Below, piece by piece: positions 5,187-20,896 of a DNA stretch of 32,000 nt (position 1 is its first letter; each line of letters starts with the position of its first letter). Where the stretch lies: NCBI RefSeq assembly GCF_024460475.1, contig NZ_JANFYN010000001.1, positions 20,946-52,945 on the forward strand, read 5' to 3'. Origin of the DNA: Holdemanella sp. MSK.7.32 (lineage in GTDB: Bacteria; Bacillota_I; Bacilli_A; Erysipelotrichales; Erysipelotrichaceae). A model generated the notes under the pieces. The model searched no databases and was not told the origin of the DNA. It saw only the letters and a program-made list of their open reading frames with translations. The translations under genes were made by a program, and so were the position numbers.

Positions 5187-5190
5187 AGCT

Positions 5191-6252: not shown

Positions 6253-6263
6253 ACATACTCCTT

Positions 6264-6282: not shown

Positions 6283-6286
6283 TTAA

Positions 6287-6314: not shown

Positions 6315-6318
6315 CCAT

Positions 6319-6347: not shown

Positions 6348-7006
6348 CGTCCTAATAATCGTAAAATGTATAAGAAAATATTCAAGAAATCTAAATAAAG
6401 CTGTAACGCCATATAAATCGATATCTTTTCATCTTCATACCCATTCAACATATAATTCATTTTTTGTATGTCCCAAGCTGTAAGTCCGGTAAATAATAAT
6501 AGGCCAATCACGCTCCATAAGCGTACATCCATACTAACTCTAAATAGCATGAAGAAAAATTGACTAAAGATCATCGCAATCAAACCAATCAAACAAATGT
6601 TTCCCACTTTACTAAGATCCATTTTAGTCGTCTTTCCAATAATAGCTAAACATGCAAAGTAGATAGCGCTAATGCCAAAGGCAGCTGCAATCTGTCCAGC
6701 ACTATATACATAAGCCAATGATGTCATATTGATTCCCATTGTAAGTGAATACACAATAAACATCGTCTTTATCGTAGAAGCGGGTGTATTACGTGATAAT
6801 TGACGTCCCATTGAAATCGTTAACGAAATTTGTACTATGAATAATAATAGTGAAATCATGGGAATCTGAATAATAAGCATGAATATGCCTGAAGCATACA
6901 ACAAGGCCGAAGTGATTGCCGTAATTCCAAGACCTACCATCATCCAGCTGTATACTTTATATAATGAATTTGTACTTACTGAGTTTGAATAATTGTTTGT
7001 ATACAT
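6335..7006 (-). CDS. Bax inhibitor-1/YccA family membrane protein
   Basis: 223 aa with seven hydrophobic segments and the family-typical C-terminus (LQLYLDFLNIFLYILRLLG). The RBS is AGGAGG. Confidence 0.9.
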   Translation of the reverse strand: MYTNNYSNSVSTNSLYKVYSWMMVGLGITAITSALLYASGIFMLIIQIPMISLLLFIVQISLTISMGRQLSRNTPASTIKTMFIVYSLTMGINMTSLAYVYSAGQIAAAFGISAIYFACLAIIGKTTKMDLSKVGNICLIGLIAMIFSQFFFMLFRVSMDVRLWSVIGLLLFTGLTAWDIQKMNYMLNGYEDEKISIYMALQLYLDFLNIFLYILRLLGRRDD

Positions 7007-7169
7007 AAATATATTTACCTCCTATTTTTAGAGTATTTTATGTTTTTTACATATACATTACAATGTACAACTTAGACAAAATGACTATTCAATTAACCAA
7101 GTCTTCAAAATTTAACCTTTAAAAGCTTTTATTTTTTTCAAAAATAAAAGAATGTATTTCTACACTCTC

Positions 7170-7364
7170 TTACTTAATATCCAATTCAATAGGCTCATCC
7201 ATCGTATCACTGACGTATTTGCCATTCTTTTTTCTTTGTTTCACGCACTCTGTCAACAAGTATTCAATTTGTCCATTGACACTGCGAAAATCATCTTCTG
7301 CCCATGAAGCGATTTGATCATACAATTTTTTTGAAAGACGCAAAGGAATCTGTTTCTTTTCCAT
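7170..7364 (-). CDS. Arc-like ribbon-helix-helix DNA-binding protein
   Basis: 64 aa. The N-terminal IPLRLSKKLYDQIASWAEDDFRSVNGQIEYLL fits the Arc/MetJ RHH pattern. The start overlaps the SPFH stop (TAATG). Confidence 0.65.
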   Translation of the reverse strand: MEKKQIPLRLSKKLYDQIASWAEDDFRSVNGQIEYLLTECVKQRKKNGKYVSDTMDEPIELDIK

Positions 7365-8362
7365 TAGTAAAGACTGCCAGAATTTACAACTGGCTGCGCA
7401 TCATGGTTTCCACAAAGTACGACTAACAAGTTAGAAACCATAGCCGCTTTCCTTTCTTCATCCAATTCTACAACCCCATTTTCATTTAAACGATCCAATG
7501 CCATTTCAACCATACCAACAGCTCCATCCACAATCATCTTACGTGCATCAATAATCGCACTTGCCTGTTGTCTTTGAAGCATAACGGCTGCAATTTCTGG
7601 TGCATATGCCAAATATGTGATTCTTGCCTCAATGATTTCAAGACCTGCATCTTTTACTTTACTTTGAATTTCATCACGAATTCTAGAAGCAACCACTTCA
7701 CTAGAACCTCTAAGACTTCCTTCATCGGCAATACCATCACCTGTTGTATCTACATTTTCAGCGACATCATAAGGATAAATACGAACAATATTTCTTAATG
7801 CACTATCGCATTGTAAAGAAAGATATTCCTTATAGTTATCTACATTAAATACAGCTTTTGCGGTATCTGTAACACGCCACATCACGGCAATTCCAATCTC
7901 AACAGGATTTCCTAAACAATCATTGATTTTTTGACGATTGTTGTTTAAAGTCATGATTTTCAAAGATACTTTTTTCGAAGCTATTTCTGCCGTTCCATTA
8001 TTTTGTGCCTGAAAAATACTCTTCTTAGACCCATCATCCACATCTCCACTTTGATTTAGTTTTGTCTTTGCGGCAGGATTGACAGCCTGACAAAAAGGAT
8101 TGACATAATAGAATCCAGCATCCTTTAAAGTACCCACATATTTACCAAATAACGTTAAAACCAAGGCTTCTTGTGGCTTTAATACTTTTAAACCAAGAAA
8201 TGGAATCCAACCAATACATAGCCATACAAGACCAACAATAAATAAAGGCCAAATTAATGCTGCCCCAAGTATTGTCATCAATAAAGCTACAAGATATAAA
8301 ACAATCCACAATATCATCATGGCCATGCCATTCTTTTTGTTGCTTAAAACTTTTTCTGTCAT
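7364..8362 (-). CDS. SPFH/Band 7 domain membrane protein
   Basis: 332 aa with two N-terminal TM helices, then an SPFH-like core and a coiled-coil/Ala-rich region ([20 protein letters not shown]). The RBS is AGGAGGTG. Confidence 0.88.
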
Positions 8363-8413
8363 ATAAGCACCTCCTGATACTCTTATGATATCATTTTGAT
8401 ATCTATTGTCAAT

Positions 8414-8438
8414 AAAAAAAGATGGAAAATCCCATCCT
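8414..8438 (-). terminator. probable rho-independent terminator after aroD
   Basis: Minus strand reads GATGG-GATTTT-CCATC followed by TTTTTTT. The stem is short. Confidence 0.5.
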
Positions 8439-8443
8439 ATAAA

Positions 8444-9205
8444 TTATAGACTCTTGTGTAAAGTTTCAAGAATTATCTTAAGATCATTTACACCCATTTG
8501 ACCCGGAGCACTTGCCTTTTTAGCAGCACCAAATGTCAAACAAGAACCAAATACTTCACCAGCTAAACGAGAAATTACTCCCGTAGCTGCCATTGACATA
8601 GTGATGATTGGACGATTGGCATGTTCTTCTACCATTTCATTTGTAGCTGATAATAATGTCAATACATCCTTTTTTGATTGAGGCATAACTGCAATCTTAG
8701 GAATGTCTGCACCCTTTTCTTGCATAGCACACAAACGAGAAATGATTTCTTCTTTAGATGGTGTTTTAAAGAAGTCATGGTTCGACATGATTACTTTTAC
8801 TCCATTTTCATGAGCTGTCGTTACAATCGTTTCAACTTCCTTATCTCCTGTATACAATTCAACATCGACTGCATCTACATAACCGCTTTTGGCAACTGCA
8901 CAGTTTAATTCCACATAATATTCAGTAGATACTTCTAATTCTCCACCTTCTTTTTTAGAACGGAAAGTAGCTAAGACTGGAGTTCCTTTAAATACTTCAC
9001 GTAATTCATTAGCCATTTCTACTACAGATGCAGTATTTTCAACTCCTTCAAACCAATCCATACGCCATTCAATAATATCAGCTGGTGTATCAAGAATGAT
9101 TTTAGCTTGTTCTAAAACATCTTCTTTACTCTTTCCACAAATAGGAACACAAATCTTTGGTACGCCTGCACCAAATTCAACATTTTTCATTGTTACTGTA
9201 TTCAT
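8444..9205 (-). CDS. aroD: type I 3-dehydroquinate dehydratase
   Basis: 253 aa. IEWRMD, ATFRSKKEGGE, the MSNHDF catalytic-His context and the AVMP catalytic-Lys context (IPKIAVMPQ) are typical of type I AroD. Confidence 0.93.
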   Translation of the reverse strand: MNTVTMKNVEFGAGVPKICVPICGKSKEDVLEQAKIILDTPADIIEWRMDWFEGVENTASVVEMANELREVFKGTPVLATFRSKKEGGELEVSTEYYVELNCAVAKSGYVDAVDVELYTGDKEVETIVTTAHENGVKVIMSNHDFFKTPSKEEIISRLCAMQEKGADIPKIAVMPQSKKDVLTLLSATNEMVEEHANRPIITMSMAATGVISRLAGEVFGSCLTFGAAKKASAPGQMGVNDLKIILETLHKSL

Positions 9206-9614
9206 TTTTTTATTCTCCTTTATTCATATTTTTTGTATACGCATCAACTGACTACTCCTCACCACAAGCAGTGAGGGTTCTTTGCTGACAACATTATGCA
9301 GCAATCATACATTATTTTCAAACTTTGGATTCCTATCTTTCTGTTGAAGCAGTGAACTCTACAGTCAAGCACTACATTTAGCACATAGATTGGATAAAAT
9401 CCACTTCTTCTTTCCTTTTTTGATAGTTCCATCCTCATTATAGTTGCCTGGATTCATAGCTCTACGACTTCTGTCCATTTTCATTTAAAGAAATTAAAGA
9501 TAAACAACCCACAAAAGAAACGTATCATTTATATGGCAAACATCAAAAACAGATATATGCTTCCTGCTGCGCATTCATTCTGTAATTTCATTGTCCAAAA
9601 CTCCAATATTGACT

Positions 9615-9645
9615 AAAAGAAGAGATCAAGTCGGTCTCTTCTTTT
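9615..9645. terminator. AT-rich 11-bp hairpin, possible bidirectional terminator
   Basis: AAAAGAAGAGA-N9-TCTCTTCTTTT is a perfect stem. It is T-rich on both sides and lies downstream of the disrupted small ORF. Confidence 0.4.
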
Positions 9646-9688
9646 AGTTTTCATATTGAATATAGTTTCTTAAGAAAGCAATGCCAGC

Positions 9689-9916
9689 TTAAGCTAATGC
9701 ACAACCAAGTCCTGAATAAAAGAAGGCAATAAAGATATCCGGAAAGATTCCAGCTGCTCTAAATCCAATTCCTCCACCCATCATGCAAGCCATGATCATA
9801 TAGGCTTTTAAATCAAAGAAGCGCCAGAATGGATGTATTGCTTCATATCACAGAATTCGTTTTGTGTGTTTTTTGCTCATTTTGAAAAACATCATTCCAA
9901 ATATATCCGTTTTCAT
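9689..9916 (-). pseudogene. small membrane-protein ORF interrupted by an in-frame TGA (possible pseudogene or gene remnant)
   Basis: The minus-strand reading from ATG 9916 gives MKTDIFGMMFFKMSKKHTKRIL, then TGA at 9850-9848. The same frame continues as YEAIHPFWRFFDLKAYMIMACMMGGGIGFRAAGIFPDIFIAFFYSGLGCALA to TAA at 9691-9689. Confidence 0.3.
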
Positions 9917-9993
9917 GTTATCATCATTCCTTTTTAACTCTATTATTTTCATTTTAACTTTAGTATCGTTAAAAGTAATGTTTTTGCGTTAAT

Positions 9994-10323
9994 TTACTTA
10001 ATCAAATACTTTTCGAATGCCTTTTCTGCATCCAAATGTACAGACTTAAAGAAAAGAATACCCCATAGAACATAGGTTGGTATAGCGATAAGAGTGGATA
10101 TGAAATAAGAAATGATTGCTCCTAGAAATAGAATCAATGCATATGTAAAGCATTGATTTCGCATATCTAAAGAAATATATGCCTTATCATACTTTTCAGG
10201 ATGATTCAACGTACTAAAACCAGAAACATACTTAGCTCCTTTTTCCTTTAATAAAGAGAAAAGAATCCCCACAATAAGAAACAAAACCCCGAGAACAATA
10301 CATGCCATAAATCCAATATTCAT
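9994..10323 (-). CDS. small membrane protein, DUF3784-like
   Basis: The ORF track gives 140 aa from 10416. I prefer ATG 10323 (MNIGFMACIV), which has AGGAGC upstream. Two or three TM segments flank a short cytoplasmic loop (GFSTLNHPEKYDK). Confidence 0.6.
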   Translation of the reverse strand: MNIGFMACIVLGVLFLIVGILFSLLKEKGAKYVSGFSTLNHPEKYDKAYISLDMRNQCFTYALILFLGAIISYFISTLIAIPTYVLWGILFFKSVHLDAEKAFEKYLIK

Positions 10324-10434
10324 AATTAGCTCCTTTCGGATAAATTGTATCACATCTTTTTTTTGAAACAATTTTCTGATTTTTACATTTATTTTCATTT
10401 TAGAGTTGCCACTCACAAAGAAATGGTGTATTCT

Positions 10435-10479
10435 ATGCGTATGAACACTTCAAGACATTATTACTTTTACTTTAAATAG
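10435..10479 (+). CDS. candidate leader peptide MRMNTSRHYYFYFK (aromatic-rich)
   Basis: This 14-codon ORF has five consecutive Tyr/Phe codons (TAT TAC TTT TAC TTT) at 10459-10473. Its stop codon overlaps the 5' arm of a hairpin (10479-10485 pairs with 10522-10528), and an intrinsic terminator follows. The SD is weak (GGTG). Confidence 0.35.
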   Translation: MRMNTSRHYYFYFK

Positions 10480-10537
10480 CCCTGAGAAAAGCCATATGTA
10501 TACGATGGTTATTTTTAAGTTTCAGGGCATTCAAAAG

Positions 10538-10564
10538 GCATTTCTTCTTCGAAATGCTTTTTTT
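10538..10564 (+). terminator. intrinsic terminator/attenuator immediately upstream of aroE-aroK
   Basis: GCATTTC-TTCTTC-GAAATGC followed by seven T. No plus-strand gene lies upstream, so it is more likely a regulatory attenuator than a gene-end terminator. Confidence 0.6.
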
Positions 10565-10601
10565 AACATTTAAAGAGCTGTTCTAGAAAAGAGGAAATGA
10601 T

Positions 10602-11885
10602 ATGAAATACGGATTGATTGGTGAGCACTTGGGGCATAGTTTCTCTAAGCAAATTCAGACAAGAATTGCAGAGATTGAGAACGTAAAAGATTATGACTAC
10701 CAATTGGTGGAATTAGATAAAGAAGAATTCAAAGAATTTATGGAAAAGAAAGATTTCAAAGGAATCAACGTGACTATTCCATATAAAAAGGATGTCATTC
10801 CTTACTTAGATGAAATGGATGAAAGTGCTAAAGCTATTGGTGCTGTCAATACAATCATCAATGTAGATGGCAAATTAAAAGGGTACAATACAGACTTTGG
10901 TGGATTCTTATATATGGTTAAAGCCCACAACGTACATATGGAAGGCAAGAAGGTCTTGATTATTGGTAATGGTGGTGCATGCGCTGCTGTTAAAGCCGTT
11001 TGTAAACATGAAAACGCAAAAGATATTGTGATTGTTTCAAGAAGTGCAAATCGTGGTGCCATTGGATACGATGAAATGTATACATCCCATTTAGATGCAG
11101 ATATTGTCGTCAATACAAGTCCTGTAGGAATGTTTCCAAATATTGCGAATGCACCAATTGATGTAAGCTGGTTCCATAAATTAGAATGTGTATTAGATGT
11201 TGTATACAACCCAATTCTTACACGTTTATGTTTTGAAGCTCAAGAAGCCGACATCAAGCGTGTGATTGGTTTGGAGATGTTGATTGCGCAAGCTAAATAT
11301 ACATTTGAAATTTTTAAAAACATGTCTTTTGATGATTCTATCATTGATGAAATCAAAAAGGAGATGTTGAAAGATCGTTGTAACATCGTATTAATTGGTA
11401 TGCCAAGTGCTGGTAAAACAACAATTGGTAAAATGCTTGAAGAAAAGCTTGGAAAAGAATTTTTCGACTTAGACGATATGATTATTGCCAAAGCCGGCAA
11501 AAGTATTCCAGAAATCTTCCAAGAATCTGGAGAAGCTGGATTTAGAGCGATTGAAACAGAAGTTGCGATTGAAGCTAGTAAGATGAACAATAAAATCATT
11601 GCGACAGGTGGTGGTGTCGTTAAACATAAAGTCAATATGGACTTTTTACGTTTAAATGGAATTACGATCTTCATTGATCGTGATATCGATAAATTAATTA
11701 GTTCCGATCCAAATAGACCTTTATCAAGCTCTAAACAAGCCCTTCAACAAATGTATAAAGAAAGATACCCATTGTACCAAAAATACGCTGCTTATATAGC
11801 TGTCAACAATGCGAATATTGAAGAAACGGTTGATGATATTGTGAATGCCTATCACAGCATTTTAATTGATGCCGTTGCAGAGTAG
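10602..11885 (+). CDS. aroE/aroK: bifunctional shikimate dehydrogenase / shikimate kinase (AroE-AroK fusion)
   Basis: 427 aa. The N-terminal ~260 aa carry AroE motifs (HSFSK, NVTIPYK, GAVNT, GYNTD, and the GNGGA Rossmann motif). The C-terminal ~165 aa carry the AroK Walker A motif (GMPSAGKTTIGK) and ATGGG. Confidence 0.93.
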   Translation: MKYGLIGEHLGHSFSKQIQTRIAEIENVKDYDYQLVELDKEEFKEFMEKKDFKGINVTIPYKKDVIPYLDEMDESAKAIGAVNTIINVDGKLKGYNTDFGGFLYMVKAHNVHMEGKKVLIIGNGGACAAVKAVCKHENAKDIVIVSRSANRGAIGYDEMYTSHLDADIVVNTSPVGMFPNIANAPIDVSWFHKLECVLDVVYNPILTRLCFEAQEADIKRVIGLEMLIAQAKYTFEIFKNMSFDDSIIDEIKKEMLKDRCNIVLIGMPSAGKTTIGKMLEEKLGKEFFDLDDMIIAKAGKSIPEIFQESGEAGFRAIETEVAIEASKMNNKIIATGGGVVKHKVNMDFLRLNGITIFIDRDIDKLISSDPNRPLSSSKQALQQMYKERYPLYQKYAAYIAVNNANIEETVDDIVNAYHSILIDAVAE

Positions 11886-11933
11886 CGAGAAGGTTTATTA
11901 TCTTCTCGTTTTCTTTTAAAAAGGAGAAATCAT

Positions 11934-13697
11934 ATGGAAAATCAAGTTACACAATTATTAAAAGCTATGGTAAAGCCAGACTATACAGCTTGTAGCTATG
12001 CCTTTATGCAGGATGGAAAAATTGTATGTGCCGATGCGATTGGTGTCATCGACAAAATCAACAATCAACCCATCACGACGGATTGTACATTTAATGTATG
12101 TTCGATATCTAAAATCTATTGTACCGTATGTGTTATGCAGTTAGTGGATGAAGGATTGATTCAACTCGAAGATAAAGTTGCAGATATTCTTCCTGAATTT
12201 ACAATGAAAGATGAAAGATATAAAGATATTACAGTACGCATGTGCCTAGATCATTCAAGTGGACTTCCAGGGACACAATGGAAACATTTTAGTGTGAGTA
12301 CCACTTCTAAGTTTGACTACTATAGCGAAGTATTAAACTATTTATCAAACAGCACCCTAAAAGCAGATCCAGGAACTTACAGTACCTATTGTAATGATGG
12401 GTTTACACTCGCTGAAATGGTCGTTTCAAAAGTTCGTAATATGCCTTATGAAGATGTCTTAAGAAAATATATTACAGAAAAGATTGGCGCAAAAAGCACC
12501 AATACAACATATACAATCAATTCAGATTATCCTTTAGTTTCTGAAGGTAAGAAACCAAAAGAATACTTTCCAATTCAAGGAGCCGGTGGCATCACCACTT
12601 CTATGATTGATTTATGTAAATTTGGTCAACTCTTTCTAGAACCTAATTCTATTCTTAGTGAAAAGTCAAAAGCTTTAATGGCTAAATCTTGGGGCACTAC
12701 ATTTCTTGAATCGGATCTAGGCGCCATTGATTTTGGCTTAGGCTGGGACTTAGTCAGACACCATGATCCAGACTATGATTTTGGTGATAGTGTTCTGGCA
12801 AAAGGTGGAAACAGTATGTTCTTTAGTTCAAGACTGATCATTGTTCCTAAATACAATGCCGTATTAGCATTCAGTGAAACACATGATTGCGGACTCGATG
12901 TTCCTACAACTTTAATGCGCTTATTCAATACCTATTTAGAACCAAATACATATCCAGATTATTCAGGAATTTATGCCCATGCCTTTGGTTTACAAAAAAT
13001 CACAACCATAAAATCAAGTATGGTTGTGCAAGATAAAACGGAAAAAGGCTGGATCATGAGTGATCTATTAAATTATGCAGATGGTAAATGGACAAATGAA
13101 AAAGGAAATCAAATCTTCTTTGAGGGGGATTATCTTTTAAAGACAACAAGAAATCGTACGGTTGCGTTTGCACAAAAAGCCAAAAAACAAGAACTCAACT
13201 CACTCTGGAAATCTAGATTAAATAAGAAATATATTGTGTGTGATACAACTTATTATGATATTGTCACAAACCAAATGTTATGTAGTGTTGAATTTAACAG
13301 GACAGAAGATACAATGTCATTGATCGTTCATGGCAATAAATCAGAGCCTGTAGTATCTGAATTTCCAATTGAAGCAATCGATGATACACATGCCCAAAGC
13401 TATTTAAATACGCCTTGTAACGGTTCTAGAGATCGTATTGAACCTTACTTTGAAGATGGTAAATTGTATTGTGCTAGCTACACCTATATTTGTGAAGATG
13501 ATATAGAACCATATACTTCTCAATTGTTTAAAAAAGAAAATCAAGTCTACAAAATCAACAACACTTTAGAAGTCTTACCAACTATTTGTGAAAATCATCG
13601 AATTCTAGTATTAGACTCAAATGGAGATCTATACTACGATTCAATGGATGTCGAAGAATATAAACCTATTGAATCTGGATTTATCATCTTGGTTTAA
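11934..13697 (+). CDS. beta-lactamase-family serine hydrolase (PBP4*/class C-like) with extra C-terminal domain
   Basis: 587 aa with the SxxK motif (CSISK), a YxN-like motif (YCNDG) and KGG in place of KTG. The ~250-aa C-terminal extension has unknown function. Confidence 0.82.
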   Translation: MENQVTQLLKAMVKPDYTACSYAFMQDGKIVCADAIGVIDKINNQPITTDCTFNVCSISKIYCTVCVMQLVDEGLIQLEDKVADILPEFTMKDERYKDITVRMCLDHSSGLPGTQWKHFSVSTTSKFDYYSEVLNYLSNSTLKADPGTYSTYCNDGFTLAEMVVSKVRNMPYEDVLRKYITEKIGAKSTNTTYTINSDYPLVSEGKKPKEYFPIQGAGGITTSMIDLCKFGQLFLEPNSILSEKSKALMAKSWGTTFLESDLGAIDFGLGWDLVRHHDPDYDFGDSVLAKGGNSMFFSSRLIIVPKYNAVLAFSETHDCGLDVPTTLMRLFNTYLEPNTYPDYSGIYAHAFGLQKITTIKSSMVVQDKTEKGWIMSDLLNYADGKWTNEKGNQIFFEGDYLLKTTRNRTVAFAQKAKKQELNSLWKSRLNKKYIVCDTTYYDIVTNQMLCSVEFNRTEDTMSLIVHGNKSEPVVSEFPIEAIDDTHAQSYLNTPCNGSRDRIEPYFEDGKLYCASYTYICEDDIEPYTSQLFKKENQVYKINNTLEVLPTICENHRILVLDSNGDLYYDSMDVEEYKPIESGFIILV

Positions 13698-13704
13698 CCT
13701 TAAT

Positions 13705-13738: not shown

Positions 13739-13924
13739 GTTTCATGAATATCAATCAACAAAAATTCTAAGAATGGCCCATCGACTGTATAATTGTGTTC
13801 TTGAATCCAATGTAGTGTTGCGCGCAAAATGCAAAAATGTTGCAAATAAAATGCAAAAAATAGGTTTTAAAAAAAGACATTTTAAACGGCTTTTAAACGC
13901 CAAATAAATGTCCTTTTTTAATGC

Positions 13925-14134
13925 TTATTTTCTGTTTCTTATTTTGATTAAATCACACACTTCACAATTCAAAACTGAGCATATTTTTTCAATATGTTCT
14001 AGACTGATTCTATCCACCATTTCCCAATATATTTCATTAATCGTGTTAGGTCTAATACCAGTCTTTCTAGCAAGTTCTGCCTGAGTCATTTTCTTATTTC
14101 CTAATAGCTCAGACAGGTATATTTTAATCGCCAT
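13925..14134 (-). CDS. XRE-family (Cro/CI-type) helix-turn-helix regulator
   Basis: 69 aa with MTQAELARKTGIRPNTINEI as the HTH. Confidence 0.85.
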   Translation of the reverse strand: MAIKIYLSELLGNKKMTQAELARKTGIRPNTINEIYWEMVDRISLEHIEKICSVLNCEVCDLIKIRNRK

Positions 14135-14186
14135 AGCAACGCCCCTTTAAGTGAATTTTATCACCCCAAACATTGCTATAACATTA

Positions 14187-14217
14187 TTGATATTTTATAT
14201 CGTATTTTGATATTTTA
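14187..14217 (-). promoter_or_regulatory. direct repeat TTGATATTTTA x2 (20-bp spacing) upstream of the XRE gene, possible operator/promoter
   Basis: Exact 11-bp copies at 14187-14197 and 14207-14217. The second copy overlaps the Dam stop codon. Confidence 0.3.
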
Positions 14218-15046: not shown

Positions 15047-16024
15047 TTACTTACACAAACTATTTACAATGCTTTGAATTGCATCATAGTTATACCCAGC
15101 AGCTGTTAAACGAGCCTTACGATCGGCTCCGTTTCCCCAATTACCAGCAATAACCTCTTTAGCAATTGCTTCGTTGGATTTACCAGGCTTTGATCCATAT
15201 GATTTTTCATTAACTTTTGCTTGAACTGCATCATAATTGTAACCTGCGCTAGTTAAACGATTCTTACGATCAGCTCCGTTTCCCCACTTACCAGCGATGA
15301 CTTCATCTGCCAACTGATCAATGGTTTTTGTTGGCTTTGGAGCAGGGTTTGAATTTCCTACCATTTGATTTACTAATGATTGAATAGCATTATAATCGTA
15401 ACCTGCGCTAGTTAAACGGTTCTTGCGATCAGCTCCGTTTCCCCACTTACCAGCAACCACCTCTCTTGCAACTTCCTCACTGGATTTTTTGTTACCTGTA
15501 GATGGTGTAGATGGAGATTCAGCTCCATTCATCATTTGATCATACCATTGTTGAGCTTTTTGCATATAAGCATCTCTTTGCTCATCCTGTAATCGACCAG
15601 GGCAAGATGTAGCTGCAAAATGATTATGAGGGAATACATTTACTTTCCATTGAGGACGTCCCAATCCATAATACTTACATAGCGCTGCAACTAAATGAGC
15701 TCCTGCATCTAAGCATGCTTCACTAATATATCCGCCTTCTTTATTAGCATGTTCAATTCCAATACTTGAACAGTTAGCATCCCAGTTACTTGCATGCCAT
15801 GCTGTATCACTATCCCAAACCAACTGTCCAATACGACCTGAAGATTCAACTTGATAGTGTGCTGAAGCTGGTCTGTTTTGCCATACAGAATAACATCCTT
15901 CTACAGTTAAATCGCCTGCGTTATAATGAATGATAATTTTATTGATTTTTCGTCCTGAACGCCCACTAGTATAGTGCGTGTTCAGGATTTTATTTACATC
16001 AGCATTTAAGTTTTTCCAATCCAT
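15047..16024 (-). CDS. endolysin: N-acetylmuramoyl-L-alanine amidase (Amidase_2/PGRP) with three CW_7 cell-wall-binding repeats
   Basis: 325 aa with an N-terminal amidase domain (IIHYNAG, HY, HNHFAATSCPG). The C-terminus carries three copies of AGKWGNGADRKNRLTSAGY(D/N)Y(N/D)A(I/V)Q. Confidence 0.9.
   Translation of the reverse strand: MDWKNLNADVNKILNTHYTSGRSGRKINKIIIHYNAGDLTVEGCYSVWQNRPASAHYQVESSGRIGQLVWDSDTAWHASNWDANCSSIGIEHANKEGGYISEACLDAGAHLVAALCKYYGLGRPQWKVNVFPHNHFAATSCPGRLQDEQRDAYMQKAQQWYDQMMNGAESPSTPSTGNKKSSEEVAREVVAGKWGNGADRKNRLTSAGYDYNAIQSLVNQMVGNSNPAPKPTKTIDQLADEVIAGKWGNGADRKNRLTSAGYNYDAVQAKVNEKSYGSKPGKSNEAIAKEVIAGNWGNGADRKARLTAAGYNYDAIQSIVNSLCK
15050..15484 (-). repeat. three tandem CW_7-encoding DNA repeats inside the endolysin gene
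   Basis: Near-identical stretches such as GCTCCGTTTCCCCA(A/C)TTACCAGC recur three times at roughly 130-155 bp spacing. Confidence 0.8.
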
Positions 16025-16556: not shown

Positions 16557-16583
16557 AAAAGGTAACGAAATTAATCGTTACCT
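16557..16583 (-). terminator. rho-independent terminator at the RT gene end
   Basis: Minus strand has a 9-bp stem AGGTAACGA/TCGTTACCT that contains the RT stop codon, followed by TTTTAATTATGTTTT. Confidence 0.6.
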
Positions 16584-17725
16584 TGATTTCTAGTCAGTAC
16601 AAACCAACCATCTATTCCTTTTTCATAATCACCAAATATTTCTGTTTTTAATGCGTAACTATTACAATGCTTCAACAGTCCAAAATATGAATCAACTACT
16701 CGTGTAGCGTGTTCTAAAGTACAATCTCCTTCATTGTATCGTTTCATCACGCCTTTTAAGTTCCTTTTAATTCTTAAGGAGGTGCTTTTCCTTATTTTAA
16801 TATGTGTAGGCCATAAGCGAAAACCACAAAATTCAATTCCTTGATTGATTGGTCTAATACAGGTCTTTTGATTCATTTCCATTTTCATGACATCATTCGC
16901 GAACTTTTCTAGTTTTTGATGCCATTCTTTTATTTGTTTCTTATCATCAGAAAGCACCACAATATCATCCTGATAACGTATATAACACTTGATTCCTAAT
17001 GTCCTTTTAGCATATTGGTCTATCTGGTCATTGTAAACATTCGCTAACATCTGTGAAATCAAAGCGCCCACTGGCATTCCTTTATCATATAAACGTTCGC
17101 TCATTTCAACATCTTCAGGACGCATGCCTCTAGGCAAACCAAAAGGCATATCAGGGCTTTCTATGCGGGTTGCAAGCCATCTAACAACACGATCATCCTT
17201 AATTTTCTTCTTCAATACATCAATCATAACTTTATGATCTACTCTATAAAAGTATTTGCTAAAGTCTATTTTCAAGTAATACCACTTATTTAAATCGGAT
17301 ACATCTAAACCGTTTTTCAGCTTATTGTATCTTTTACTATTGACCAATTTAAGCCAATAATGCAGCCTTTTAACTGCTGCAATTTGTCCTTTTCCTTTGA
17401 TGCAAGCATAAGAATCCTTGATGTACATCCTAGTAAACATAGGACTTAAAACTTGATAAAACGCCCACTGTTTTATCACTTCAGGAAAGTCTTGAGCAAG
17501 GATCAAACGACACTTTGGTTCGTAAACGTAGAACTCTCTATATTTAGGATAATCAGCAACTTCGCTTCTTAATTCATTTTGAATCTTAACTAGATTCGCT
17601 TCTAGATTTTGGGTAAATATGAGTACATCTTTTCTATATCTTTTGTTTTTACGAGCGTTTAAATAAGCCTTGTATATGTTTTCATCACTAACGATATCGT
17701 CATATACATTCTTTATTTTCGCCAT
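16571..17725 (-). CDS. DGR-type reverse transcriptase
   Basis: YQDD catalytic box (IRYQDDIVVLS). The motif PVGALISQMLANVY contains the SQ signature typical of DGR RTs. The gene is adjacent to the TR array and avd. The preferred start is ATG 17725 (MAKIKNVY) after GGTGA. The ORF track starts at GTG 17734. Confidence 0.92.
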   Translation of the reverse strand: MAKIKNVYDDIVSDENIYKAYLNARKNKRYRKDVLIFTQNLEANLVKIQNELRSEVADYPKYREFYVYEPKCRLILAQDFPEVIKQWAFYQVLSPMFTRMYIKDSYACIKGKGQIAAVKRLHYWLKLVNSKRYNKLKNGLDVSDLNKWYYLKIDFSKYFYRVDHKVMIDVLKKKIKDDRVVRWLATRIESPDMPFGLPRGMRPEDVEMSERLYDKGMPVGALISQMLANVYNDQIDQYAKRTLGIKCYIRYQDDIVVLSDDKKQIKEWHQKLEKFANDVMKMEMNQKTCIRPINQGIEFCGFRLWPTHIKIRKSTSLRIKRNLKGVMKRYNEGDCTLEHATRVVDSYFGLLKHCNSYALKTEIFGDYEKGIDGWFVLTRNQGND

Positions 17726-17886
17726 GATCATCACCTAATTTTTAAGATGCTTAACGGAGTTCATTTAACATTACTATCGGTTTTCATCTTTATTTATTTT
17801 TTTGCTTATTCAGCATGGAATTAGACTCCTTTATTCCCTTGATTTGAAATGATAGACGTATCCATCATATACCTAATTGCAAGAGC

Positions 17887-18000
17887 AGAGCGGAGCGAAA
17901 ACCTGCATTGTGATTCGAATTGGAGCGTGGGTCATTCAAGTTTACAGCGAACACGCCTGCATTGCTACCATTATCCCAATTGCCACCACGAAAAGGCAAA
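17887..18000 (-). repeat. DGR template repeat cassette TR1 (RT-proximal)
   Basis: Minus strand reads CCT TTT CGT GGT GGC AAT TGG GAT AAT GGT AGC AAT GCA GGC GTG TTC GCT GTA AAC TTG AAT GAC CCA CGC TCC AAT TCG AAT CAC AAT GCA GGT TTT CGC TCC GCT. It has 8 AAY codons. It matches VR blocks 1-2 with adenine-only differences. Confidence 0.88.
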
Positions 18001-18035
18001 TCATATAGTCCAATCCCATTACTCTTTATAGGGTT

Positions 18036-18146
18036 AGAGCGGAGCGAAAACCTCTATCATTGTCAGAGTTGGAGCGTGGGTTGTTGAGATTCAAAGCGAA
18101 CACACCTGCATTCGAATAGTTCCAAAAAGCGCCACCACGAAAAGGT
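18036..18146 (-). repeat. DGR template repeat cassette TR2
   Basis: Same 26-codon register between the anchors. Variable blocks are GCT TTT TGG AAC TAT TCG AAT / TTG AAT CTC AAC AAC / AAC TCT GAC AAT GAT AGA, with 7 AAY codons. It matches VR block 3 with adenine-only differences. A TGA lies two codons upstream of the 5' anchor, so it is non-coding. Confidence 0.85.
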
Positions 18147-18174
18147 CTTCATAATAATCTAATCCCATAAGGAT

Positions 18175-18292
18175 AAAGCGGAGCGAAAACCTAAATCGTC
18201 CCAAGTATTGGAGCGTGGGTTGTTCAAATTCAAAGCGAACACGCCTGCATTGCTAGAATTATTGAAGCCGCCACCACGAAAAGGCAAACGCT
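18175..18292 (-). repeat. DGR template repeat cassette TR3 (avd-proximal)
   Basis: Same register. Variable blocks are GGC TTC AAT AAT TCT AGC AAT / TTG AAT TTG AAC AAC / AAT ACT TGG GAC GAT TTA, with 7 AAY codons. Its flanks AGCGTTTGCC and GCTTT are identical to the VR flanks. A TAG lies three codons upstream of the anchor. Confidence 0.85.
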
Positions 18293-18324
18293 AATAGCCT
18301 AATCCCAAAATAGCATAAAAGAAT

Positions 18325-18340
18325 AGAGTGGAGCGAAAAA
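18325..18340 (-). repeat. truncated copy of the cassette 3' end motif
   Basis: AGAGTGGAGCGAAAAA versus AGAGCGGAGCGAAAAC at the cassette ends. It lies just downstream of the avd stop and marks the edge of the tandem array. Confidence 0.6.
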
Positions 18341-18355
18341 GGGCTCACAATTCAT

Positions 18356-18856
18356 CTAATCCTTATGACTTTTTTGACATGTATAACAAAGAGATTTACC
18401 AAAATTTTTCATTGAATATTCATAAGACTTAGGAGTTATTCTTGTGCCACATTTCTCACAAACATATGGTTTATCAACAGCTTTATTTCCTGTTTTTTCT
18501 TTTTCAGCCTTAATCCAACCACCTAACATCTTGCCGACTTTATCTAATCTTCTAGACATTTCCATATAGTGGTTTTCGCCTTTAAAATATTGCAAGTCAA
18601 ATGCTAATCTTACATAAACCTTTAATACAGCTAGTTCTACATCCATTTTTTCAAGTGTTGTAGTCTTAGCGTATTTTTTATTAGCTGCAATTGCATATTC
18701 AAGAACTGAATCCATCTTTTTTTTAATATCTTGAACTAAAGAAAATTTTTGACTCTTTGGAAAATGATCCAACAATGGATAGGCATATAGCAACATATCA
18801 TAAACCTCCTGTTGTATGATCAGTTGCGTTTCATACGAGCCTAATTGATTATCCAT
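18356..18856 (-). CDS. avd: DGR accessory variability determinant (Avd, four-helix-bundle / 23S rRNA-IVS family) with C-terminal CxxC-CxxC zinc-ribbon extension
   Basis: The preferred start is ATG 18856 (MDNQLGSYE) with GAGGTGG upstream. The ORF-track N-terminal extension overlaps terminator hairpins. LLDHFPKSQKFSLVQDIKKKMDSVLEYAIAAN fits the Avd/IVS pattern. The tail is YVCEKCGTRITPKSYEYSMKNFGKSLCYTCQ. Confidence 0.85.
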   Translation of the reverse strand: MDNQLGSYETQLIIQQEVYDMLLYAYPLLDHFPKSQKFSLVQDIKKKMDSVLEYAIAANKKYAKTTTLEKMDVELAVLKVYVRLAFDLQYFKGENHYMEMSRRLDKVGKMLGGWIKAEKEKTGNKAVDKPYVCEKCGTRITPKSYEYSMKNFGKSLCYTCQKSHKD

Positions 18857-18900: not shown

Positions 18901-18940
18901 AATAAAAAAAATAATCCCACCAGCTTAATCGCTGGTGGGA
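18901..18940 (-). terminator. strong rho-independent terminator between DGR target gene and avd
   Basis: Perfect 10-bp stem TCCCACCAGC/GCTGGTGGGA (18915-18924 and 18931-18940) with a 6-nt loop, followed on the minus strand by TTATTTTTTTTATT. Confidence 0.75.
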
Positions 18941-18944
18941 ATGA

Positions 18945-18962
18945 TTGCCACTTACGTGGCAA
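18945..18962 (-). promoter_or_regulatory. 7-bp hairpin with 4-nt GNRA-type loop downstream of VR (candidate DGR target-recognition hairpin/cruciform)
   Basis: Minus strand reads TTGCCAC-GTAA-GTGGCAA, 22 nt after the target stop codon. Confidence 0.5.
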
Positions 18963-18984: not shown

Positions 18985-20064
18985 TTACAGACCGACAAAA
19001 GCGGAGCGAAAACCTCTAACATTGTCAGAGTAGGAGCGCGGGTCATGCAAGTCGACAGCGAACACGCCTGCAAGGCTACCATCATCCCAAGAGCCACCAC
19101 GAAAAGGCAAACGCTCTCCCTTATTTCTCATATAGATATAATCTCCATGATTTGCTTTTGTTCCATCAGGATAAATTGCCAAAGCCTTTAAGATTTCAGG
19201 CGGGTTGATACTTCCATCTGCTGTCATATCTTCAAATTGTCCTGCAGCATACGGATCACCATTAGTCTGTTGATGTGCTAGAGTTGTTACTAATTTAGGC
19301 ATTCCTTTCGATGTGTTTTCAGTACCTGGATCTACTGTATAATCGAACTTTAATGTATTAGCAGATTTTGGCGCAACCAAGTTTCCACTCTTATCAATCG
19401 CTTTCCAATGGCTAGAATTTTCAGCCATATTTGCATCACATGCTGCATTATTATCAGCAATAACTTGGATTTCACCATCAACTAATCGAAGTCCTCCAAC
19501 CCATTCCCATACATTTCCATTCAAATCAAAGATACCTGAATTACTTCCATCATGTGCCCATGTAACTGGGCCTGAACCTGTTCCAACTCTACCTGTTTTT
19601 CCATCATATTTATAAGTTTCAACACCTTTTTCATGCGGATATGATACATCGCTTCCGTAATTGTTGTTGCCTCTTGGGAAGTATCCGTTCTTTTTACACC
19701 ACAAAGCAATCGCAGCCCATTCAGCATTTGTCATTAAATGCCATCCTTTACCTTTGTTTTCACAAGCTTTTCTTGCTGTATCAAAATCAATATAAACTTT
19801 TGGATCTTGCATTGGTAAAGAGTATGCTCGATCATTCACTACGATATTTTGATACTTACTAATATAAATTTCATCTTTTTCTACACCATTAACAATAAAG
19901 GCTGGATGTACTGAATTAGAACCACCTTCAATTACATCTGAAATTTTAAATTTAGGAATTCTAACCATGATTGACGGATTTCCTAAATCATCAAATAATA
20001 CTGTATTTTTCCCGCCAGTCGCTGCTTCAACCGCTAACTTGATTGCATCAAAATTTGTCTCCAT
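18985..20064 (-). CDS. DGR target protein: phage tail fibre/receptor-binding protein with FGE-sulfatase (C-type lectin fold) domain
   Basis: HLMTNAEWAAIA, GNVWEWVGG, and C-terminal RGGSW...GFRSA are hallmarks of the FGE/CLec fold used by DGR targets. The VR occupies the last ~38 codons. The preferred start is ATG 20064 (METNFDAI), overlapping the upstream stop (TAATG). The ORF track starts at 20082. Confidence 0.9.
   Translation of the reverse strand: METNFDAIKLAVEAATGGKNTVLFDDLGNPSIMVRIPKFKISDVIEGGSNSVHPAFIVNGVEKDEIYISKYQNIVVNDRAYSLPMQDPKVYIDFDTARKACENKGKGWHLMTNAEWAAIALWCKKNGYFPRGNNNYGSDVSYPHEKGVETYKYDGKTGRVGTGSGPVTWAHDGSNSGIFDLNGNVWEWVGGLRLVDGEIQVIADNNAACDANMAENSSHWKAIDKSGNLVAPKSANTLKFDYTVDPGTENTSKGMPKLVTTLAHQQTNGDPYAAGQFEDMTADGSINPPEILKALAIYPDGTKANHGDYIYMRNKGERLPFRGGSWDDGSLAGVFAVDLHDPRSYSDNVRGFRSAFVGL
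18998..19115 (-). repeat. DGR variable repeat (VR)
   Basis: Same anchors and 26-codon register as TR1-3, but only one AAY codon remains. Differences from the best-matching cassette segments fall only at template adenines. Confidence 0.9.
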
Positions 20065-20396: not shown

Positions 20397-20896
20397 TAAT
20401 ATCGTCCTCCTGTTACTTTATATTTTAATTTCACATTTTTTGCACTGCCTTTAAACGCCAATTTAAACCCATTTAACTGTTTGTCAAAAACTTCAATTGT
20501 TTCAATATTTCCATCCGTTTCTGACACTTCGATTTGAACCACATAATCAAAATTAGACCTTTTTTCTTTAATCGGAACCGTTATCGAAGCTGATGAAAAT
20601 GGATATTTATTTGTGTTTTTGATAGTTACCACACCGAATTCACCATGATTTTCTGCAGCTGATCTTTGTAGTTGAAGCATTTCTTGTTGCAAAGCCAGAG
20701 CAAGAATCTGATTTGCAAGAATCCCTTCTTCCATGTTGTTATAGTTCTTAGCATTTCTCGGTGTTCCTTGTTGAATTACATCACCTTCTGCACGAACTAT
20801 ATCTGCAGTTCCATCTTTATTGTTTGTAATTCGTCTACGCATTGGATATTGCGTAACGTGATCGAGCCATTTTGTTGCTTTATACAATAATCCCAT
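20396..20896 (-). CDS. short tail-fibre-like protein
   Basis: 166 aa. The N-terminal pattern W-DHV...GDVIQQGTPRNAKNYNNMEEGI resembles the conserved N-terminus of Firmicutes phage fibre proteins. The RBS is GGAGGT. Confidence 0.55.
   Translation of the reverse strand: MGLLYKATKWLDHVTQYPMRRRITNNKDGTADIVRAEGDVIQQGTPRNAKNYNNMEEGILANQILALALQQEMLQLQRSAAENHGEFGVVTIKNTNKYPFSSASITVPIKEKRSNFDYVVQIEVSETDGNIETIEVFDKQLNGFKLAFKGSAKNVKLKYKVTGGRY

Follow-up and report, generated by a model that had tools for sequence, protein, structure and literature searches.

In the textbook diversity-generating retroelement (DGR), variation is limited to the adenine-encoded positions of a single fixed template, and the RTs of these elements are recognized by the (I/L/V)GxxxSQ signature of motif 4 and by the YxDD catalytic motif. 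A different route to variation is silent-cassette gene conversion, as it occurs from pilS to pilE in Neisseria, in the vls system of Borrelia and with the chicken immunoglobulin pseudo-V genes, where it is followed by hypermutation. In these systems the expressed locus is a mosaic made from adjacent, unexpressed and diverged cassettes that have conserved blocks, a layout that resembles the DGR described here; likewise, in chicken B cells cassette combination is layered with point hypermutation, as in this DGR.

The DGR carried by BPP-1, a Bordetella phage, comprises the VR of mtd, avd, one TR, the spacer and brt. It was reported for this phage that at least 8 bp of homology are needed for the 5' integration of the cDNA, and that cryptic internal integration sites exist (PMC3240598); nevertheless, the mode of DGR cDNA integration is still unsettled (PMC12875486). 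Loci in which two or more TRs lie close to a single RT have been described in genome surveys (Yan et al. 2019, PMC6642488; PMC11661182). In the passages of these two surveys that were examined, the extra TRs are treated as paired with VRs of their own or as redundancy to be removed, and nothing was found there on TRs arrayed in tandem, on VRs that are mosaics or on RNA motifs specific to each cassette. More generally, mosaic VRs, TR arrays and per-cassette motifs were not found in the DGR surveys and mechanism literature, where multi-TR loci are mentioned, nor did we find a published description of cassette shuffling and adenine hypermutation in one DGR; this absence is not a proof of novelty.

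The locus studied here was analyzed within a window of 32 kb, i.e., the whole stretch of DNA that was examined. On the minus strand, avd is followed by TR3, TR2, TR1, a single spacer RNA and the RT gene. The main components are:

18985..20064, minus strand: DGR target gene, for a probable 359-aa prophage tail or baseplate-distal protein with a predicted FGE-sulfatase/C-type-lectin fold
18356..18856, minus strand: accessory gene avd, 166 aa, extended at the C-terminus by CxxC...CxxC
18321..18364, minus strand: 3' end of avd, in which the stop-strand motif recurs in degenerate form (AAGGATTAGATG); the scar left by deletion of a fourth cassette (GAGCCCTTTTTCGCTCCACTCTATTC) comes next
18177..18284, minus strand: TR3 cassette, the sole cassette with the upstream AGCGTTTGCC and the downstream GCTTT of the VR
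18038..18145, minus strand: TR2 cassette, from which the 3' segment of the VR derives
17889..17996, minus strand: TR1 cassette, from which the 5' segment of the VR derives
16571..17734, minus strand: DGR reverse transcriptase (Pfam RVT_1, E = 6e-16), with VGALISQ and YQDD present

The target protein matches Pfam PF03781 (E = 2e-8, 34.6 bits versus a cutoff of 23.3) and is encoded directly downstream of baseplate J and Mu gp48-like genes; the last approx. 40 codons of its gene are the VR, and the translation ends in ...RLPFRGGSWDDGSLAGVFAVDLHDPRSYSDNVRGFRSAFVGL*. Its homologues number more than 5,700, with 1,558 member sequences in the closest cluster at 90% identity; a megablast search of the DGR region against GenBank phages gave no match, and neither the exact RT protein, tried with two start codons, nor the exact target protein has a record. 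Avd was identified with NCBIfam NF033474 DivGenRetAVD (102 bits versus a cutoff of 80) and Pfam bAvd (PF22296, E = 3e-27). With the models for group II introns, retrons and Drt, the RT stays below cutoff, and its relatives with 77–99% identity are all located behind TR arrays. The RT, Avd, the adenine-biased differences between TR and VR, the C-type-lectin target with a C-terminal VR and the spacer duplex make this locus a DGR. Its architecture, nevertheless, is not the canonical one of a single invariant TR per VR, given that it has three cassettes, that its relatives have 2–7, and that the slots vary among close relatives. At the scar, 18346-18321, two relatives (L006/L008) hold a full TR4 cassette, with the same flanks. 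Some cassettes differ in length by one codon.

The locus has the following features in common with BPP-1. In both, the order is target-avd-TR-spacer-RT; the accessory protein is an Avd equivalog and the RT is of the (I/L/V)GxxxSQ type; the target has a C-type-lectin fold with a C-terminal VR; and the TR-to-VR differences are confined to adenines. The 3' block shared by TR and VR is G/C-rich and leads into a tail that diverges (IMH versus IMH*), and the VR is followed by a hairpin with a GC stem and a 4-nt loop. The spacer, too, has the same parts, namely a stem-loop, a strand on the primer side, a stop strand that pairs upstream of the TR, and a small stem-loop with adenosines. In contrast with BPP-1, which has one TR, three tandem cassettes serve one VR here (2–7 in relatives); the partner of the stop strand precedes every cassette, whereas in BPP-1 it occurs once, in avd; and the VRs are often mosaics of cassettes that are themselves not invariant, some slots having been rewritten at adenines only.

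The earlier note on this DNA had described the VR as a mosaic of TR cassettes that departs from each donor at adenines only, and this was confirmed here and in 20 related VR/array pairs. Read on the minus strand, the VR (19107-19000) is a patchwork of a 5' part from TR1 (17996-17889) and a 3' part from TR2 (18145-18038), with the following segments:

19000..19107, minus strand: VR core of 108 nt, from CCTTTTCGTGGTGGC to GGTTTTCGCTCCGCT, one of four in-register repeat copies
19045..19107, minus strand: TR1-derived 5' segment of the VR, with all mismatches to TR1 at template adenines
19031..19044, minus strand: switch interval GACCCGCGCTCCTA, a conserved block common to all cassettes
19000..19030, minus strand: TR2-derived 3' segment of the VR, with A>T at 19019, ending in the adenine-free 15-nt block GGTTTTCGCTCCGCT

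Two methods, an in-register comparison and a dynamic-programming parse in minus-strand coordinates, gave the same counts. From 19107 to 19033 the VR differs from TR1 at nine positions (19092, 19091, 19083, 19074, 19073, 19054, 19053, 19047 and 19039), and 9/9 are TR1 adenines, which reproduces the number first noted. From 19032 to 19000 it differs from TR2 by just two A>T changes, at 19032 and 19019, whereas TR1 would require seven non-adenine changes between 19030 and 19016, so that the assignment of the 3' block to TR2 and not to TR1 also holds. Over the TR1-matching part (19107-19045), TR2 and TR3 show more than 10 non-adenine mismatches each. TR1-only positions extend to 19045, and TR2-only positions start at 19030, where the TR2-matching part (19030-19000) begins; the switch had been placed inside a conserved shared block, and this was borne out by the interval of 19044-19031, whose donor is unassignable because the block is conserved in all cassettes. 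The parse attributes VR positions 1–64 to TR1 and 65–108 to TR2, with 11 adenine and 0 non-adenine mismatches. The formal alignment that the note had called for, with mismatches classified as A or non-A under chimeric and single-donor models, thus left no non-adenine mismatch under the TR1/TR2 chimera; single-donor models were rejected, the best of them, TR1, leaving seven.

The mismatches fall on template adenines in 11/11 cases, with 24 adenines in the 108-nt donor path (hypergeometric P = 7e-9), and with C, G or T set as the permitted template base the same parser accounts for 0–1 mismatches. All seven non-adenine mismatches to TR1 convert to the TR2 base, for which the chance is (1/3)^7 = 5e-4. 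The 15-nt adenine-free block GGTTTTCGCTCCGCT is present in the VR and in every TR, in four exact copies in the window, and the tails beyond it diverge; a search for the shared 3' block across the 32 kb gave four matches, the four repeat copies, a number reached by 0/100 shuffles. A chance origin of the mosaic pattern is excluded, and this VR needs at least two donors. The locus also differs from recombinase-only conversion of the pilE/pilS type, since the transfer bears the adenine-specific signature of a DGR RT, and the RT, Avd and spacer RNA are encoded alongside. This signature implies that at least one step proceeds through RNA and cDNA; a recombinase-only mechanism fails to explain adenine-only mismatches, and the likeness to silent-cassette systems is one of logic, not of mechanism.

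The pattern is general among relatives. Mosaics were found in 11 of 21 related VR/array pairs, with arrays of 2–7 cassettes, and over 21 loci 153/163 mismatches are at template adenines. Three of the mosaics come from isolate genomes, i.e., the closed genome of Amedibacterium intestinale AP019695.1 (L027), a second A. intestinale isolate (L031) and a [Clostridium] innocuum isolate (L030), and among 14 protein-level alleles of the closest cluster, seven were read by eye as pure and seven as mosaic. VRs derived wholly from TR1 (L003), from TR2 (L011, L013) and from TR3 (L006/L008, L010) were detected; therefore, each cassette is a working template. TR3 is in addition a partial donor in L004 and L012, which are three-segment mosaics. 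Mapped switch intervals fall in conserved blocks of 11–21 nt, with one junction without homology in L012 and one out of register, by a 1-nt shift, in L017.

The spacer (Sp) RNA and the sequences around the cassettes suggest how a given template could be chosen. These elements are:

17745..17885, minus strand: Sp RNA, between TR1 and the RT gene; Rfam RT-14; one copy in the window
18296..18306, minus strand: stop-strand motif GGGATTAGGCT, approx. 20 nt upstream of TR3; pairs 11/11 with 17827-17817, G-U included
18156..18166, minus strand: stop-strand motif GGGATTAGATT, upstream of TR2; 11/11 pairing with the Sp strand
18007..18017, minus strand: stop-strand motif GGGATTGGACT, upstream of TR1; 11/11 pairing with the Sp strand
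17817..17827, minus strand: Sp stop strand AGTCTAATTCC, partner of the motif upstream of each cassette
17849..17868, minus strand: Sp stem-loop ATGATGGA-TACG-TCTATCAT, 8-bp stem with a UACG tetraloop; candidate Avd-binding stem-loop
17828..17841, minus strand: Sp purine-rich strand CAAGGGAATAAAGG, candidate primer-side strand pairing with cassette tails
17796..17815, minus strand: small stem-loop TGCT-GAATA-AGCA followed by an A-run, a layout like the cPRT Stop stem-loop and A-minor adenosines of BPP-1

The Sp RNA matches RF02921 along the complete model (positions 1–144 of 144; 69.1 bits, gathering score 48.1), and shares with RT-14 a long hairpin with a UNCG-like loop, a conserved single-stranded UAAAGG...UUCC, and a small hairpin with an A-run. 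In the Rfam model the stop strand is unpaired because its partner sits upstream of the TR; here the partner was identified, in three copies. The 11-nt motif precedes every TR cassette and not the VR, VRs reaching just 7–9/11 complementarity, and in the 10 kb examined the only windows with 11/11 pairing are the three cassette motifs. Across 17 motif/Sp pairs, 98.4% of the cells are paired, 6 of 11 base pairs show changes on both sides, and 0/500 shuffles were as good; this covariation supports the predicted pairing, a counterpart of the "stop" duplex that avd and Sp form in the Bordetella DGR. The stem-loop at 17849-17868 is seen in the fold and in the RT-14 consensus structure, and in L028 it carries three compensatory pair changes (GCAATGGA-TAAG-TCTATTGC); by analogy with the work of Handa et al. 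it may bind Avd. The resemblance of 17796-17815 to the cPRT Stop of BPP-1 would be of the same analogical kind. Both the fold and the outer helix of RT-14 show the purine-rich strand paired with the TR1 tail, and the duplexes of this strand were calculated at -5 to -7 kcal/mol for TR tails and -1.9 for VR tails, versus a background mean of -2.5; the pairing is consistent from cassette to cassette but of low complexity, within only the top 3–26% of the background. A template:primer duplex of tail and spacer for each cassette is hence put forward as a hypothesis. In this lineage the internal cassettes lack a spacer of their own, so priming there would require long-range pairing, which weighs against the docking proposed below.

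At the other end of the transfer, the 3' border of the VR shows a candidate target site:

18945..18962, minus strand: TTGCCAC-GTAA-GTGGCAA hairpin (or cruciform) downstream of the VR, a candidate for DGR target recognition

This hairpin (18962-18945) has a 7-bp stem and a GTAA loop, with a z of -7.6 when folded as DNA. In relatives the stem is kept and the loop varies as GNNA (GTAA, GTGA, GCTA, GCAA, GACA), and no hairpin of this type was found after the TR cassettes. The IMH-type 3' block, the divergent tail and the downstream GC hairpin with a 4-nt loop are the elements expected of a DGR target site, and are candidates for it here; a role of 18945-18962 in target recognition would parallel that described for BPP-1 (PMC3240598).

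From these data we propose, with about an even chance of being right, that any cassette may serve for reverse transcription and that mosaics result when the cDNA integrates partially, with a 3' bias, at short conserved blocks. Each cassette would be flanked by two docking elements, the 11-nt motif upstream and the pyrimidine-rich tail downstream, and one complex of spacer, RT and Avd would dock on any of them to give an adenine-mutagenized cDNA; docking is what we propose as the route of cassette choice. The cDNA would then replace the VR stretch homologous to it, with the adenine-free 3' block GGTTTTCGCTCCGCT beside the hairpin at 18962-18945 as its anchor and with its 5' junction wherever identity suffices. 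A junction at the 5' block would give full replacement, and one at an internal conserved block, GCAGGCGTGTTCGCT or ACCCACGCTCC, partial replacement. The location of the switches in blocks of 11–21 nt fits the requirement of at least 8 bp reported for BPP-1, as well as its cryptic internal sites. Regarding the VR studied here, a full-length TR1-derived VR would have been formed first, and later overwritten from its 3' end to 19044-19031 by a TR2 cDNA, an order that is suggested by the comparison among relatives.

The same comparison points to a 3' polarity of replacement. The Amedibacterium VRs L027, L031 and L039 have the same 5' AA>TC, and their 3' parts come from c4, c4 and c3, with different substitutions. 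Among the protein-level alleles, a shared 5' part with different 3' parts was seen in five groups and the reverse in one, and in both rewritten slots of L027 (c1) and L039 (c2) the change is in the 3' part. As counter-examples, the 5' part was replaced and the 3' part kept in P0207/P0217 and in the TR3 slot of L003, and the whole tally is small, about seven for versus two against. The successive 3'-anchored homing suggested in the note is thus made likelier by the VRs and allele groups with a common 5' part, and stands short of proof.

The strongest alternative, although rather unlikely in our opinion, is template switching (copy choice), in which the RT jumps between the conserved blocks of cassettes, on the same or on a second RNA, and a chimeric cDNA replaces the whole VR at once. 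The cassettes are in tandem on one transcript and share exact blocks of 11–21 nt where the mapped switches lie; template switching was invoked for the 5' junction of BPP-1 (PMC3240598); the shifted junction of L017 and the homology-free one of L012 resemble copy-choice errors; and the three-segment mosaics would need one homing event only. However, the 5' adenines should be re-randomized each time, and L027, L031 and L039 keep the identical AA>TC, in keeping with the predominance of pairs whose 5' part is common and whose 3' parts differ. The presence of a stop-strand motif for each cassette also suggests single-cassette cDNAs, and by our own reading both mosaic orientations are about equally frequent, with no directional jump along the array. 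By our count, approx. eight mosaics follow the array order and five reverse it, i.e., mosaic order bears no relation to array order; such a relation would point to loop-out from read-through cDNA, and its absence neither helps nor hurts the model of successive partial homing.

DNA recombination is the next alternative, and an unlikely one by a good measure. Here the segments would be written by homing from single cassettes, and then combined by homologous recombination or gene conversion, either among the VR alleles of phages that co-infect or co-reside, or between VR and cassette. Crossover products of VR and TR do recur in assemblies and gene calls (L001, L035, P0003, P0137, P0220/P0222), the TR of module 2 in L042 equals the VR across the whole 106-nt aligned core, and the 5'-only replacements (TR3 slot of L003, P0207/P0217) are accommodated more easily than by 3'-anchored homing. 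On the other hand, breakpoints occur in approx. half of the alleles, within a 108-nt region with identity of 21 nt at most, which is far denser than expected of general recombination; the transfer of an unmutated cassette would leave no adenine changes, and both segments of this VR have them; and at least two cassettes are still required as RT templates.

That a TR1/TR2 hybrid cassette, produced by unequal crossing-over or rewriting, templated the whole VR and was later deleted is very improbable. Hybrid cassettes do exist, i.e., TR3/TR2 at 5589 in L007, c1/c2 in c1 of L027, and c2/c4 in c2 of L039, and the variation in cassette number (2–7) and the scar at 18346-18321 are in its favor as well. 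Nevertheless, a gain and a loss would be needed at each of the 11 mosaic loci; L007 is the only one of these where a hybrid was found, and the 3' part of its VR still needs a second donor; and TR1 and TR2 are nearly identical in at least 12 close relatives, whose VRs are all different. Finally, an assembly artefact joining TR1-type and TR2-type haplotypes of a heterogeneous VR population, conceivable because many relatives are metagenome contigs and because the protein cluster includes fusions of VR and TR as well as VR calls with frameshifts or truncations, a sign of assembler trouble, was rejected as scarcely credible, given that such haplotypes would share only the 14 nt of 19044-19031, below any usual assembly k-mer, and that like mosaics are present in one closed isolate genome and two other isolate assemblies.

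The cassettes themselves also change, as certain slots have at times been rewritten at adenines only. In L014, L003 and L001 there is an exchange of sequence between the TR3 slot and the VR or the cDNA. The VR flanks had been reported as identical only to TR3, which is correct (AGCGTTTGCC upstream, GCTTT downstream) and fits an exchange of this kind. The rewritten slots suggest that the directionality from TR to VR may be leaky here. We consider it possible, though somewhat less likely than not, that these elements are a distinct DGR subfamily, widespread in prophages of gut Erysipelotrichaceae, in which docking of one complex of spacer, RT and Avd on 2–7 cassettes would give hypermutated mosaics as two programmed layers of diversification, in analogy with pseudogene conversion and somatic hypermutation. 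A template library overwritten at times by mutagenized cDNA or by the current VR would evolve, and could be 'saving' successful variants for later rounds. If true, this occasional overwriting would break the rule of the invariant DGR template.

Block-wise mixing of diverged templates multiplies the sequence space that can be reached, and also lets non-adenine positions, loop lengths and scaffold residues change. The arrays are a natural experiment on template selection and bracketing by the spacer RNA, on the site of 5' joining of the cDNA, and on the protection of templates from homing; as for engineering, they offer a compact design of multiplexed DGR libraries, with one spacer and many cassettes, each with an 11-nt docking motif. 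Human gut metagenomes commonly contain the element, which also occurs in culturable isolates, so that these ideas are testable.

One further element separates the target transcript from the avd-TR-RT unit:

18905..18940, minus strand: intrinsic terminator of the target gene, 10-bp stem (7 G-C pairs) followed by a T-run

Rfam hits under threshold (SNORA81, ncr1175, CRISPR-DR56 and others) were taken as chance matches, and that of SNORA81 includes this terminator hairpin. At 18883-18875, 3' of the terminator, a putative extended -10-like sequence, TGTTATAAT, can be read by eye.

A contractile-tailed prophage on the minus strand (with genes for a sheath, a YQBQ-like protein, baseplate J and a Mu gp48-like protein) takes up the right two-thirds of the window, and a complete diversity-generating retroelement (DGR), which qualifies as such by every defining feature tested, sits downstream of the baseplate genes. 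In reading order it comprises:

20064-18985, minus strand: target gene, with an FGE-sulfatase/C-type-lectin fold
19107-19000, minus strand: variable region (VR) of the target gene, one of four repeat copies
between target gene and avd, minus strand: hairpin and intrinsic terminator
18856-18356, minus strand: accessory gene avd, NCBIfam Avd equivalog
after avd: three 108-nt repeats, the template cassettes, with a period of 139-149 nt
18284-18177, minus strand: cassette TR3, repeat copy
18145-18038, minus strand: cassette TR2, repeat copy
17996-17889, minus strand: cassette TR1, repeat copy
between repeats and RT gene, minus strand: spacer of 145 nt
17734-16571, minus strand: RT gene, with motifs VGALISQ and YQDD

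A holin-like ORF, an endolysin (Amidase_2 + 3xCW_7) and a Dam methylase follow the RT gene.

An earlier note had read this VR as a mosaic of TR cassettes with adenine-only changes relative to each donor, and that observation holds in every detail. From 19107 to 19033 the VR differs from TR1 at nine positions, 9/9 of them template adenines, as had been claimed for its 5' part; from 19030 to 19016 there are seven non-adenine mismatches to TR1, so that the 3' part is not derivable from this cassette without such changes. The final 33 nt differ from TR2 by just two A>T changes (19032 and 19019), and the opening 60 nt show many non-adenine mismatches to it. When the VR was parsed by dynamic programming (donor-adenine mismatches cost 1, all other mismatches 4 and each change of donor 6), positions 1-64 were assigned to TR1 and 65-108 to TR2, with 11 adenine and 0 non-adenine mismatches; this donor path holds 24 adenines, giving a hypergeometric probability of 7e-9. 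The best single donor, TR1, would require 13 adenine and 7 other changes, and all seven of the latter lead to the TR2 base. Control parses that allowed changes at template C, G or T instead explained only 0-1 mismatches. The donor switch is limited to GACCCGCGCTCCTA (19044-19031), in the shared block where it had been placed before. Because both VR segments carry adenine substitutions, the RT copied TR1 as well as TR2.

Relatives, mostly metagenome contigs, were found by RT and target-protein searches of viral contigs, species-representative genomes, metagenomes and isolate assemblies; the host organisms of these prophage elements are Holdemanella, 'Eubacterium' sp. TM05-53, Amedibacterium, [Clostridium] innocuum and Coprobacillus, all Erysipelotrichaceae. 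In all related loci, 2 to 7 TR cassettes stand in tandem between avd and the RT gene. Parsing every VR with the cassettes of the locus it belongs to as possible donors yielded 21 distinct VR/array pairs: 10 pure and 11 mosaics of two or three cassettes. Template adenines account for 153 of 163 mismatches; of the ten exceptions, four are in the first four flank positions. All cassette positions serve as donor; pure VRs derive from TR1 in locus L003, TR2 in L011/L013 and TR3 in L006/L008 and L010. Two Amedibacterium intestinale isolates, one with a closed genome (AP019695.1), contain mosaic VRs, as does one [C.] innocuum isolate, whose two donors are unequal in length by one codon. The closest 90%-identity target-protein cluster has 1,558 member sequences, and among the 14 complete VRs listed from it seven are pure and seven mosaic, in both orientations, as read by eye. 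The mapped switch intervals are two internal cassette-conserved blocks of 11-21 nt. Assembly chimerism is not a credible source of the mosaics, since pure haplotypes would have only these 11-21 nt in common and closed and isolate genomes give the same pattern.

The cassette slots are not invariant. The TR3 slot of L014 (755-863), recognised by its flanks, has TR2 content with eight adenine-only changes, and this allele's 5' part recurs in the slot at L003:5451-5559. In cassette c1 of the closed A. intestinale genome (L027:5223-5331) the 3' half is that of c2 with three adenine changes, and at L039:4465-4573 the 3' half of c2 is that of c4 with four; non-adenine mismatches were absent from these four rewritten slots. 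The TR of module 2 in L042 (ending at 5123) is identical to the VR across a 106-nt aligned core. This points either to occasional homing of mutagenised cDNA into cassettes or to recombination that copies the VR back. The VR flanks are identical to those of TR3 only, as the earlier note stated. In the window, TR3 and the VR have 10 nt of upstream and 2 nt of downstream flank in common, which fits VR/cassette exchange.

As the route to the mosaic, we give about an even chance to successive partial retrohoming, in which cDNAs from different cassettes would replace stretches of the VR in turn. In the Bordetella phage BPP-1 the IMH, the 3' anchoring block, fixes the position of the 3' junction, the 5' junction needs at least 8 bp of identity, and cryptic internal sites are usable (PMC3240598); here the internal conserved blocks of 11-21 nt would serve as 5' junction sites. 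Three lines of evidence argue for this route. The Amedibacterium VRs of L027, L031 and L039 have an identical two-base AA>TC change in the 5' block, with 3' parts from c4, c4 and c3, respectively, and differing substitutions; five groups of protein alleles have a common 5' part and differing 3' parts versus one group with the opposite, although such counts are low and come from alleles that lack phylogenetic independence; and two rewritten cassette slots are altered in the 3' part. Switching of the RT between cassette templates is possible but rather unlikely: the exact blocks common to cassettes, the out-of-register junction in L017 and a homology-free junction in L012 are compatible with it, and the retention of 5' substitutions counts against its being the main route. 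Recombination at the DNA level, among VR alleles or of the VR with a cassette, is more doubtful still, even if VR x TR crossover products recur (L001, L035, P0003, P0137, P0220) and a few alleles keep the 3' part with a changed 5' part (P0207/P0217, the L003 slot). The small remaining probability falls to a lost hybrid cassette or an artefact.

Each cassette is also preceded by a partner for one strand of the spacer RNA. The spacer (17885-17745) belongs over its full length to Rfam RT-14 (69 bits), is present in single copy in the window, and corresponds part by part to the Bordetella RNP as modelled by cryo-EM (bioRxiv 10.1101/2023.10.23.563531):

17868-17849, minus strand: 8-bp stem with UACG loop, with compensatory changes in L028
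17841-17828, minus strand: purine strand
17827-17817, minus strand: 11-nt strand AGUCUAAUUCC
17815-17796, minus strand: small stem-loop, then adenosines

In BPP-1 an equivalent strand of 11-12 nt pairs with the avd 3' end immediately upstream of TR, and the resulting 'cPRT Stop' duplex terminates cDNA synthesis and is also required for its start (bioRxiv 10.1101/2023.10.23.563531). In the window, GGGATTRGRYT lies 20-25 nt upstream of each of the three cassettes (18306-18296, 18166-18156 and 18017-18007), and each copy pairs 11/11 with 17827-17817, differences between copies being all wobble-compatible; motif windows were picked as the best complement within 45-50 nt, and their position is nonetheless at a fixed distance. 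No other window in the 10 kb examined pairs 11/11, and the VR has none. Cassette tails pair with the purine strand better than VR tails (-5 to -7 versus -1.9 kcal/mol), a weak signal. In four other lineages (L029, L040, L041 and L042), one of them Coprobacillus-like, a complete spacer accompanies every cassette between avd and RT (period 207-275 nt), and motif and spacer covary module by module. The 17 motif/spacer pairs compared show pairing in 98.4% of cells, and 6 of the 11 base pairs are altered on both sides; 0/500 shuffles were as good, and slid registers gave 21-65%. The internal cassettes of the window lineage are just 31-41 nt apart, with one spacer in common. Because other lineages keep a covarying spacer per cassette, the array most likely arose by duplication of whole stop-motif/TR/spacer modules and was then most likely compacted in the window lineage to one shared spacer, with a candidate docking motif kept before each cassette.

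In contrast with canonical DGRs, a template array here serves one VR and the stop-strand partner is repeated ahead of each cassette; in this element and its relatives, VRs are often mosaics and templates are mutable. Passages of two surveys list loci with at least two TRs, even VRs matched by several TRs, and handle them there as redundancy (PMC6642488, PMC11661182); neither mosaic VRs nor TR arrays turned up in a full-text literature search of incomplete coverage. The logic is similar to that of silent-cassette gene conversion followed by hypermutation, from which the window element differs in its adenine signature, which shows a reverse-transcription step.

Several irregular loci were found among the relatives. 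The mosaic junction of L017:2024-2130 is 1 nt out of register (TGA microhomology), so the VR is 107 nt and the frame of the last codons is shifted; the error arose either in copy choice or recombination or in assembly. Many target-cluster proteins are broken inside the VR (P0144, P0146, P0148, P0150, P0155, P0160, P0183 and P0184 are frameshifted or truncated there), and could be non-functional homing products or errors in assembling a heterogeneous VR. Recurrent target-gene/TR fusions (L001:2585-2740; the L035 cassette ending at 2818; P0003, P0137, P0216, P0220, P0222, P0239) join the VR upstream flank to a cassette and its downstream flank, with avd, and sometimes cassettes too, deleted; they are either genuine deletions by VR x TR recombination, by which the DGR would be disabled, or the result of collapsed repeats in assembly. 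The seven-cassette array of the [C.] innocuum lineage (L028:5217-6215; P0193, P0197) is called on 26 contigs as an ORF through the cassettes (…GFRSALFQSKIGIRLLVMPFRGG…), probably a spurious gene call, since cassettes retain the VR reading frame.

In the window, a remnant of a fourth cassette, GAGCCCTTTTTCGCTCCACTCTATTC, lies at 18321-18346 (minus strand), where L006/L008 have an intact, adenine-poor TR4; this scar is the product expected if TTTTCG at a cassette 5' end recombines with TTTTCG of its 3' block. The avd stop codon falls within a degenerate copy of the stop-strand motif (AAGGATTAG). A C-terminal extension of Avd of about 45 aa (18356-18480, minus strand) has two CxxC pairs (CEKCG...CYTCQ), looks like a zinc ribbon and is kept in the relatives P0139, P0143 and P0145. 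Repeat family D2 (15058-15488, minus strand; three 125-nt copies, 69-80% identity) simply reflects repetition within a protein, the Amidase_2 endolysin with its three CW_7 cell-wall-binding repeats. The left part of the window (1-13700) is host chromosome, with genes for an HI0933-like flavoprotein, YitT, a choloylglycine-hydrolase family protein, SPFH, an aroE-aroK fusion and a beta-lactamase-family protein; the prophage boundary lies near 13.9-14.2 kb (13865-14215), beside the Dam methylase, and a 44-nt imperfect repeat links 13865-13908 and 20423-20466 at 70% identity.
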